From Caldisericota bacterium (lineage in GTDB: Bacteria > Caldisericota > Caldisericia > JAAYUI01): a stretch of 26,530 nucleotides of DNA. The position numbers and the translations under genes were made by a program. Shown piece after piece: positions 13,519 to 15,174 of this stretch (within the stretch, counting starts at the first letter, position 1; every line of letters begins with the position of its first letter). The notes under the pieces are model-generated. The model worked only from the letters and a program-made list of their open reading frames with translations. It did no database searches and had not been told where the DNA came from. The DNA lies in contig JAKPMO010000008.1 in the NCBI GenBank assembly GCA_029548865.1, forward strand, positions 1-26,530. The letters are read 5' to 3'.

Positions 13519-15174
13519 GTGTTTCCACTTCCAAGTCTTGAACTGAAGACTATTGAAGAAGATTCTTTTCTCGGTCGTTATAGCATAGAGCCGCTCCATT
13601 CGGGCTATGGTGTAATGATAGGCAACAGCTTGAGGAGAGTCCTTCTGTCGTCCATTCCGGGCGCTGCACCGATTGCAGTCCGTATTGAAGGCGTCCCGCA
13701 CGAGTTCTCAGTCATTGAGGGTGTCGTTGAGGACGTTGTTCAAATCATCCTTAACCTCAAAAAACTTGTTGTGGCAATGGATGGTGATGAGATAAGGACG
13801 CTTACTCTCGATGTATCTGGAGAAAGAGTAGTTACTGCTGCCGACATCATCCCTGATGCCGGACTCACCATCATCAATCCAGAATTGCACATTGCCGAGC
13901 TGTCTTCTTCGAAGTCGACCTTAAGGATGGATATCCTTGTATCTAAGGGCAGAGGCTACGTACCGACAGAAAAGAACAAGCGCCCCGATTATCCCATTGG
14001 CACAATCTGGATGGATGCTATGTTTACACCGGTCAAAAACGTCAAGTTCGCTGTCGAGCAGACGCTTATTGAACAGTATCTTGATTTCGAAAAATTGACC
14101 TTAGACATCCTTTGCAATGGTGCCGTACCGCCAAAAGAAGCCCTCGACAACGCTCTGCAGATTCTTTCCGAATACTACATGGCAATTGGCAATCCGGAGC
14201 TTCTCCGCAAGAAAGAAACCTCCCTCGAGGAAACCCTTGAGGAAAAACTTGCCCTGCTCATTGAAAATGTGCTCCCAGGTCTTTCACCAAAGGTCCAGCA
14301 CCTTCTTGTCTACGCAGACATCAAGACAATGCGCGATCTGCTCATGAAAACCAAGACCGAACTCGTCCAGCACCACAACATCACCCACAAGGCAATCACA
14401 GAGCTTGCAAAGGCCTTAGAAGAATCTCAGGAGTATGCAACCTTCTCCCAGTTCAACTTCCCATTCTTGAAAGAGGAAGGTAAGGCTGAAATAGAAGATG
14501 AGCCAAAAGAAGCGCCAGTAACAAAAGCAGGCAAGGTAGAAAAAGAACCAGAAATCATGGAGCCTGAAGAGGCTATTGAAGAAGAGATAGTGGAAGAAAA
14601 GGTTGAGACCCCTGTCGTTGAGGAGCCAAAACCAGCAAAACCTTCAAAGGTCAAAGCTGAGAAGGAACAACCAAAACCAGAGCCGGTCCAGATTCCAAAA
14701 GAGGAACCAAAACAAGATATCACAAAGGGTTTTTCGATTCAGGATATTTCGCTTTCCAAGAGCACAATGACTTTCCTCCAGCAAAACAAGATCACGGATC
14801 TCGCTTCACTCCTGTCGATGTCAAAATCACAAATCGAGGGCATGAAGGGATTCAAACCCAAGATGATTCAGGAGATTGAGAAGAACCTTGACAAGGTAGG
14901 GCTTGTTCTTGCCCAGGACCAGATGTTTGGCAATCTCTCCCCGCAGGAAAGGGAGAAGGCAGTATGGTCAATGAGCATTGAGGACCTTGTCAAAGAAGTA
15001 CCTTCAATAACAAAGGCCGAAATGAAGTCAATGAACGGTGCTGGAATAGCAGCTGCTGGAAAACTCCTCGAGCTTGGCAAAAAAGGAATGAAGGGCTCGC
15101 TGAAGTTTTCAACCAAAACAATAGAAGACATCGAAAAGAGGCTTACAAAGTGGGGCCTCACTCTGAAGGAGTAG
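13519..15174 (+). CDS. rpoA: DNA-directed RNA polymerase subunit alpha, greatly extended (551 aa; three alpha-CTD-like domains)
   Basis: N-terminal domain motifs EPLHSGYG, GNSLRRVLLSSIPG, HEFSVIEGVVED, GRGYV, DAMFTPV; between rpsD and rplQ; GTG start; one uninterrupted frame. Confidence 0.96.
   Translation: MFPLPSLELKTIEEDSFLGRYSIEPLHSGYGVMIGNSLRRVLLSSIPGAAPIAVRIEGVPHEFSVIEGVVEDVVQIILNLKKLVVAMDGDEIRTLTLDVSGERVVTAADIIPDAGLTIINPELHIAELSSSKSTLRMDILVSKGRGYVPTEKNKRPDYPIGTIWMDAMFTPVKNVKFAVEQTLIEQYLDFEKLTLDILCNGAVPPKEALDNALQILSEYYMAIGNPELLRKKETSLEETLEEKLALLIENVLPGLSPKVQHLLVYADIKTMRDLLMKTKTELVQHHNITHKAITELAKALEESQEYATFSQFNFPFLKEEGKAEIEDEPKEAPVTKAGKVEKEPEIMEPEEAIEEEIVEEKVETPVVEEPKPAKPSKVKAEKEQPKPEPVQIPKEEPKQDITKGFSIQDISLSKSTMTFLQQNKITDLASLLSMSKSQIEGMKGFKPKMIQEIEKNLDKVGLVLAQDQMFGNLSPQEREKAVWSMSIEDLVKEVPSITKAEMKSMNGAGIAAAGKLLELGKKGMKGSLKFSTKTIEDIEKRLTKWGLTLKE

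Follow-up and report, generated by a model that had tools for sequence, protein, structure and literature searches.

A three-CTD RNA polymerase alpha subunit in a family of Caldisericia: architecture, loss of DNA-contact residues and possible roles

The rpoA locus and its neighbours

The window, by which we mean the whole 26,530-nt stretch of DNA that was analysed, is a ribosomal-protein supercluster from a 1.8-Mb Caldisericota genome obtained by metagenomic assembly. Positions 13519-15174 of its plus strand form a single frame of 551 codons with a GTG start, unbroken between rpsD (ribosomal protein S4; 12877..13509, +) and rplQ (L17; 15179..15535, +), both assigned by Pfam, just as a first-pass annotation of this DNA had described. 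A G-rich ribosome-binding site (13508..13515, +), seen directly in the sequence, overlaps the rpsD stop codon and lies 3 nt ahead of the GTG. The encoded protein passes the TIGR02027 cut-off (298 bits versus 227.8), and PF01193 and PF01000, the two Pfam families of the alpha-NTD, both match above cut-off; by its NTD, this cut-off and its position, it is a true RpoA. A protein 95% identical to it is labelled Caldisericia. The gene in the rpsD-rpoA-rplQ block is the sole alpha gene found in this genome (93% complete), as a single alpha match per genome is the state in 92 of the 93 genomes of the phylum, and its product is the housekeeping RNA polymerase alpha of the Caldisericia family that we term f1.

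Several other features of the window were recorded. No rpmD gene (L30) lies between rpsE and rplO (8484-8488), and the L30 family PF00327 was matched in 0/5 genomes of the class, three of them single-contig, as against 13/14 controls. A 352-aa protein (21369-22427) overlaps the rpsI stop codon and carries a 4Fe-4S dicluster at its C-terminal end; an overlapping gene pair (23761-25088), an archaeal-looking regulator pair, encodes a 275-aa protein with a winged-helix-like C-terminal domain and a V4R-domain protein; and a Gly/Asp-rich repeat protein of 453 aa (25080-26441, minus strand) is without a Pfam match. A scan of 11600-16400 for promoters and terminators gave sites no more numerous than in shuffled sequence.

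Domain layout of the 551-aa protein

A normal NTD followed by three CTD-like segments had been proposed at first pass, and the boundaries then given proved essentially right. The alpha-NTD, for assembly and dimerisation, spans aa 1-228 (13519..14202, +; PF01193 E 1e-16, PF01000 E 5e-30). It is followed by CTD1 (aa 243-303; 14245..14427, +) and by a conserved extension of CTD1 (aa 304-316; 14428..14466, +), an aromatic motif in which Y306, S310, Q311, F314 and P315 are invariant in an alignment of 15 sequences. A tether that is acidic, rich in E, K, P and A and predicted to be disordered (about aa 317-399; 14467..14715, +; pLDDT <50) leads to CTD2, which is specific to f1 (aa 403-465; 14725..14913, +); a short helical connector (aa 466-484; 14914..14970, +) then joins it to CTD3, of the terminal type and with a lysine-rich face (aa 485-551; 14971..15174, +). 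Across f1 the tether measures 57-84 aa, with a net charge of -10 to -25 and a between-genus identity of 26%.

On what grounds are the three segments assigned to the alpha-CTD family? Pfam marks three stretches of RNA_pol_A_CTD (PF03118) on the whole protein; in single-domain scans CTD1 lies above the cut-off (E 8.5e-7), but CTD2 (1.2e-4) and CTD3 (0.062) both fall below it. When the family profiles of CTD1, CTD2 and CTD3 were aligned by hhalign with a canonical alpha-CTD profile built from E. coli, family f7 and 11 outside proteins, the values were 86.5, 96.6 and 96.6%, against 0.1, 1.1 and 0.3% for reversed controls. A profile of CTD2-CTD3 only drew 841 proteins from 1.8 billion, and the 17 non-polymerase matches that were annotated are all multi-alpha-CTD proteins. 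AlphaFold2 modelled three helical modules confidently (pLDDT about 80) and the linker at 319-399 with low confidence. In the CTD2-3 model (pLDDT 84) the connector forms helices, the relative orientation of the two domains being uncertain (pTM 0.53), and CTD2 superposes on the E. coli alpha-CTD (Z 10.7, 71 residues, rmsd 2.5); the first six rows of its structure search (VIA) are alpha-CTDs (Z 10.7-6.7). For CTD3 the listing gives SAM/HhH domains (Z 5-6.5), since an alpha-CTD entry appears with its best alignment only, which is that of CTD2. CTD1 and CTD3 were obtained as confident helical parts within larger models. Foldseek, given the CTD2-3 model, put alpha chains at the top of its ranking with E values no better than 0.002, and had no match reaching 0.001; a phmmer search of solved structures yielded weak alpha matches only (best E 0.025), and whole-protein fold searches were filled by NTD matches and said little about the CTDs. 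Judged by these profile comparisons, and for CTD2 by its fold as well, the three segments are alpha-CTD homologues.

Could the length of the frame be an artefact of assembly or annotation? Such cases exist, in that some public records of long RpoA (P0018, P0019, P0022 and P0023) are internal exact repeats on single contigs, but here we consider the chance to be vanishingly small, and the three-CTD rpoA is confirmed as real. First, the identical layout occurs in 11 genomes, two of which are single-contig. Second, 14200-15200 contains no long DNA repeat, the longest being 20 nt at 80%, and the CTD copies are mutually identical at only 14-22 of 73-75 positions. Third, a 9858-nt contig from RNA-library run X5, which belongs to a separate study, covers rpoA from end to end without any difference or gap, and 7/7 variant letters within the gene are synonymous. 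Neither an assembly join nor an early stop codon, both of which had been raised as possibilities, was thus encountered across the gene. At least half of the words of the stretch are contained in each of 20 sequencing runs, and 14 of these runs carry a flag as possible sources; run X19 leaves parts of the stretch uncovered and carries no weight. Contigs from two RNA studies end at 15586 and 15596, just beyond rplQ, where a DNA run continues; given that DNA may be present in those RNA libraries, these ends are a weak hint of a transcript boundary.

Number of alpha-CTDs across the phylum

RpoA was extracted from 50 of the 92 genomes with a single alpha match, and its CTDs were counted with a local profile built by iteration, which is partly circular. 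Three CTDs were found in all 11 genomes of f1, which belong to 3 genera and have an RpoA of 522-551 aa; two in f2 (8/8), f5 (2/2) and f6 (13/13), 23/23 in all, with an RpoA of 373-452 aa; and one in f3 (6/6), f4 (3/3) and f7 (7/7), 16/16 in all. A seed made from single-CTD proteins alone recovered CTD2 and CTD3 in 11/11 f1 proteins and CTD1 in 6/11, Pfam giving CTD1 in the remaining five. In the remaining 42 genomes open-frame lengths only were taken, and they are consistent with their families. The two-CTD loci (L016-L025 and L034-L047) have 34 related proteins, and the three of these that bear a taxon name are Caldisericia. In f4 (L048-L050) the single alpha-CTD is eroded, with a 3-residue deletion, and Pfam detects it in 1/23 genomes.

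Outside the class, long RpoA-like proteins numbered 1099, and the best 120 of them comprised 102 with one CTD, 12 with none and six with several. Exact internal repetition on a single contig accounts for four of these six, and the other two (P0020 and P0021) have more than one NTD. Among the best 150 tandem-CTD matches an NTD is present in two only, a 553-aa three-CTD relative and P0159. Because the survey covered the best 120 of 1099, the rarity of multi-CTD RpoA is indicated rather than proven. We found no description of RpoA with several CTDs in the accessible portions of the literature, beyond which older surveys of polymerase-subunit evolution could mention one; within these bounds the earlier supposition that the architecture is rare and undescribed holds.

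A few records show other arrangements. P0159 (409 aa, a single record) is an RpoA that has, besides its terminal CTD, a second complete alpha-CTD within the NTD. P0020 and P0021, also single records that may be assembly products, are RpoA-like proteins of 880 and 1345 aa, the latter with at least five CTD-like modules. P0015-P0017, two of which are labelled Ca. Termititenax, have two diverged NTDs and one CTD per chain, and such a chain is possibly a single-chain alpha dimer.

Selection and the DNA-binding determinant

Where dS was unsaturated (in genus g3 it is saturated for most regions), dN/dS was 0.03-0.08 for each CTD, with 0.04-0.05 for CTD1, 0.03-0.07 for CTD2 and 0.07-0.08 for CTD3, versus 0.14-0.21 for the tether; the alpha-NTD gave 0.01-0.05 and the CTD1 extension 0.02-0.05. 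All three CTDs are under purifying selection.

Is it the DNA-binding surface that is retained? The available parts of two papers give the DNA-binding determinant of the E. coli alpha-CTD as residues 265, 268, 294, 296, 298, 299 and 302 (PMC10853779, PMC1874639). We scored five of these positions, R265, N268, G296, K298 and S299, which are occupied by K258/H261/T289/K291/A292 in CTD1, S415/T418/K446/K448/M449 in CTD2 and A500/K503/S531/K533/T534 in CTD3. Over the 33 copies in f1, R265, G296 and S299 are kept in none, N268 in one and K298 in all; the score is 1/5 in 32 copies and 2/5 in one, as compared with 5/5 in 76/83 outside CTDs. By these five residues of the 265 determinant, the f1 alpha is not a canonical UP-binding alpha. 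K298 is also present in 23/23 terminal CTDs of f2, f5 and f6, but in only 2/16 single CTDs of f3, f4 and f7. The old DNA face bears other invariant lysines as well, namely K258 (position 265) in CTD1, K446 (296) in CTD2, and K503, K521, K525 and K529 (268, 286, 290 and 294) in CTD3. E302 is kept in CTD2 (11/11) and in CTD1 (7/11), which indicates that the DNA face has not been wholly remodelled, and N294 is kept in the CTD1 of four. E261 and V287, of the 261 and 287 determinants for sigma-4/CRP contact, are absent in f1, but this comparison does not discriminate because the single-CTD relatives are without them too.

At 88 predicted sigma-70-type promoters of this genome the A/T content was 0.64 both before the -35 and in the spacer, and 0.65 farther upstream, with no upstream peak, in a scan that rests on predicted sites and had no positive-control genome. 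In 3/3 f1 genomes it reaches 0.70-0.80 before the -35 of the rRNA operon's upstream promoter-like site, and this A/T-rich stretch could be a retained UP element. In the rRNA operons of the three f1 genomes (L201-L204) the promoter-like sites form a tandem pair spaced by about 60 nt, and a C-rich run stands immediately ahead of the -35 hexamer in several rRNA promoter-like sites, in the f3 genome too.

These data bear directly on the inference of the first-pass annotation that an alpha dimer presents six CTD-like modules and hence an expanded regulatory interface, read here as six equivalent CTDs, with three working canonical CTDs per chain making six UP-element or activator contacts per polymerase. 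The retained fold and the A/T-rich rRNA stretch would agree with it, but the loss of determinant residues (2/5 at most per copy, when outside CTDs mostly have all five) and the flat A/T profile of the 88 promoters do not. Because no f1 copy keeps R265, G296 or S299, with N268 absent from 32/33 as well, six working alpha-CTDs per dimer are unlikely, and we now give that reading very little credence. The earlier interpretation stands as to architecture and, as far as indicated, rarity, but six equivalent CTDs as such find no support, R265, G296 and S299 being lost in all 33 copies.

A family-specific protein with an alpha-CTD and sigma region 4

Searching the genome for alpha-CTDs yielded a further protein of 259 aa, protein X (G000:C27:18035-18814; L077:3036-3815), in which an alpha-CTD and sigma-70 region 4 both match above cut-off. 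Full-length X, 252-268 aa across f1, occurs in 10/11 f1 genomes, the one without it being 69% complete, and in 0/82 others. Its alpha-CTD has R265, G296, K298 and S299 in 10/10 and N268 in 0/10, and its recognition helix is invariant and almost identical to the one in the primary sigma of this genome. The gene adjoins purD/purE or hsp20 in all three f1 genera, a setting suggestive of vertical descent. A genome collection supplied 80 retained loci, of which seven were full-length matches to X (E 5e-69 or better, the next being 6e-11), six of them titled Caldisericia/Caldisericales; an atlas search with X returned architecture-level look-alikes only (0.85-0.92). A hairpin that has a short run of T directly precedes the X start in this genome.

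Two candidate roles or correlates were rejected. A split-sigma role for X fails in that 6/6 region-2 frames of the genome have a region-4 match, so that no split sigma needs X, and the primary sigma is intact. The length of the primary sigma does not follow CTD number, being 491-576 aa in f1 and long too in f4, which has one CTD, and in much of f6. In this genome the primary sigma (G000:C17:187-1660, minus strand; frame 492 aa) has a long Lys/Ala/Glu/Pro-rich N-terminal extension.

Family f1, whose alpha has lost the determinant, is alone in having a free copy in which it is largely preserved. Might the reading of upstream DNA and of the -35 have moved to X, which would aid or compete with the polymerase, so that the CTDs of alpha were freed to diverge? 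Such a transfer would fit the confinement of X to f1, its retention of four of the five residues, a helix nearly identical to that of the primary sigma, the apparent vertical descent of the gene and the wide gap in E between full-length X and its next matches. Yet the co-occurrence of X with the altered alpha is one evolutionary event, N268 is absent from X, the f1 primary sigma keeps its own region 4, and fusions of alpha-CTD and sigma-4 are widespread elsewhere; moreover, the determinant is also eroded in f4, and partly in f2, where there is no X, and X is not linked to rpoA. We find the transfer rather improbable, if compatible with the division of labour proposed below. A more far-reaching possibility, that f1 rebuilt promoter recognition altogether, with the alpha tails as a long-armed three-module tether and X as a dissociable factor that would supply or compete for UP/-35 recognition, has in our estimation a slender chance of being right.

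History of the duplications

In a tree of 33 rows and 79 columns, for which the tool warns of long branches meeting, the terminal CTDs of f1, f2, f5 and f6 form one branch (support 99/93), CTD3 of f1 being orthologous to the second CTD of the other three; these terminal CTDs also have a common insertion of 3-4 residues. The simplest reading would be that a single old duplication gave rise to the divergent terminal CTD of the four families and that CTD2 is a further copy in f1 alone. The tree does not assign the origin of CTD2 to a copy of CTD1 or of CTD3. An intermediate state is seen in f5 and f6, in which the first CTD is fully canonical (15/15) and the second divergent. The species tree (S4, alpha-NTD and L17) leaves the order of the families unsettled: a clade of multi-CTD families was not recovered (2 changes) and not rejected (p-AU 0.30, with 23 of 50 rows), so that one gain in the class and a gain with later loss in f3/f4 are both allowed.

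Possible functions of the three domains

What might three such domains do? We tentatively favour, at a little under an even chance, a division of labour between a polymerase-proximal protein dock and a tethered, lysine-faced pair of CTDs that would grip nucleic acid non-specifically. The duplicated CTDs may have shared out the jobs of the single ancestral CTD, those of f1 presumably no longer reading UP elements in the E. coli manner. CTD1, with its short linker and conserved aromatic extension, would stay close to the core and dock NusA, sigma region 4 or activators, and the CTD2-CTD3 pair would extend on the tether to hold the nucleic-acid backbone, of upstream DNA or nascent RNA, regardless of sequence. 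The lysines retained on the former DNA-binding face would make this backbone contact, and two weak modules per chain could provide avidity. We counted in favour of this division the three CTDs in 11/11 f1 genomes, the low dN/dS of the CTDs, K298 in 33/33, the face lysines, the f5/f6 intermediate and the lack of a promoter A/T peak; against it we counted the retention of E302, the A/T content at the rRNA site, the limits of the promoter scan and the net charge of the CTDs, which is only -4 to +8. The acidic tether could also mask the CTDs. In E. coli, G296 lets the alpha-CTD approach the DNA backbone, and with its loss any DNA binding by the f1 CTDs may be gone.

The latter consideration leads to an alternative in which all three CTDs are pure protein-docking modules for activators, NusA, the ribosome or an acidic DNA-mimic partner, making no contact with nucleic acid. 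That R265, G296 and S299 have gone from every copy under strong purifying selection, that every copy has invariant residues of its own and that the structural neighbours listed for CTD3 are SAM domains, which are protein-interaction modules, would all suit such a role. It leaves unexplained why K298 is kept in every divergent copy and why most of the added lysines lie on the nucleic-acid face; nor was a co-varying partner found among NusA lengths in all families or beta' lengths in five genomes. In every family the NusA frames above cut-off measure 338-412 aa, the one exception being a piece of 253 aa, and do not track CTD number; to judge by length, they lack the repeats found at the C-terminal end of E. 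coli NusA. The lengths of beta and beta' in five genomes revealed nothing specific to f1, those of beta' being alike. We therefore take pure docking to be unlikely, though a serious contender. As for beta itself (G000:C16:118212-122246), its length is 1145 aa in f2, where an insertion near profile position 695 is missing, as against about 1400 aa in f1, f3 and f6.

Alternatively, the CTD duplicates could have been fixed by drift and kept for folding or mutual dependence without any new activity, as in constructive neutral evolution. The genomes are small (1.5-2.8 Mb), the CTDs evolve fast throughout the class and the single CTD of f4 is eroded, all of which would favour drift. However, between genera so distant that their synonymous sites are saturated, neither the surface lysines nor the domain-specific motifs vary, and a dispensable terminal domain, which one stop codon would remove, has been kept in 34/34 genes examined from four families. 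We judge neutral fixation to be quite improbable, and a division of labour remains our preferred, if tentative, reading.

Implications and comparison with known systems

The two-domain alpha is usually taken as a fixed feature of bacterial RNA polymerase. What the first-pass annotation could not show is that f1 is the top step of a series of one, two and three CTDs within the phylum, and that a family-specific protein X keeps most of the residues that its alpha has lost. One class thus provides a natural series, namely one CTD; two, of which the first is canonical; two eroded; and three, none canonical, in which the jobs of the alpha-CTD (UP-element binding, activator contact and NusA contact) can be tested for separability and essentiality. 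It shows that near-universal DNA-contact residues can vanish from a housekeeping polymerase while the domain remains under selection, with X, specific to f1, as a candidate for what took over.

How does this alpha compare with known systems? Canonical RpoA (E. coli, 329 aa; TIGR02027, PF01193 + PF01000 + PF03118), which the available part of a 2026 review describes as one NTD and one CTD (PMC13374769), resembles that of f1 in its rpsD-rpoA-rplQ position, its NTD and its alpha-CTD homology; f1 differs in having three CTDs, an 80-aa acidic tether and the loss of R265, G296 and S299 from all copies and of N268 from 32/33. The two-CTD RpoA of f2, f5 and f6 have a divergent terminal CTD, with an invariant K298, that is orthologous to CTD3 of f1 (99/93); these differ in that the first CTD is canonical in f5 and f6, f2 is without the long tether and none has X. 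They are newly found here, no paper on them having come up in the portions of the literature available.

Tandem PF03118 domains also occur in non-polymerase proteins, together with sigma-70 region 4, ResIII/SNF2 helicases or BREX PglW, to whose profile a match was also obtained. Such proteins make up nearly all of the best 150 matches to the CTD2-CTD3 profile, 17 and P0159 having been annotated, but 148/150 have no alpha-NTD and are therefore not polymerase subunits. The long RpoA of Chloroflexota type, with an acidic tail, and the duplicated-NTD RpoA of Ca. Termititenax exceed 400 aa like that of f1, but have one CTD (102 of the best 120). The NCBIfam entry PRK14906, which we take to comprise beta' subunits bearing an alpha-CTD-like domain, is weakly matched by CTD1 at profile positions 1321-1368 (E 0.034); there the core likewise has an extra alpha-CTD, but on beta' and not in tandem on alpha as in f1. 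Finally, Francisella has, according to the accessible part of the report, an alpha1/alpha2 heterodimer (PMC3294249): its alpha subunits, too, are diversified, but through two whole genes, whereas in f1 a single gene has multiplied its CTDs.
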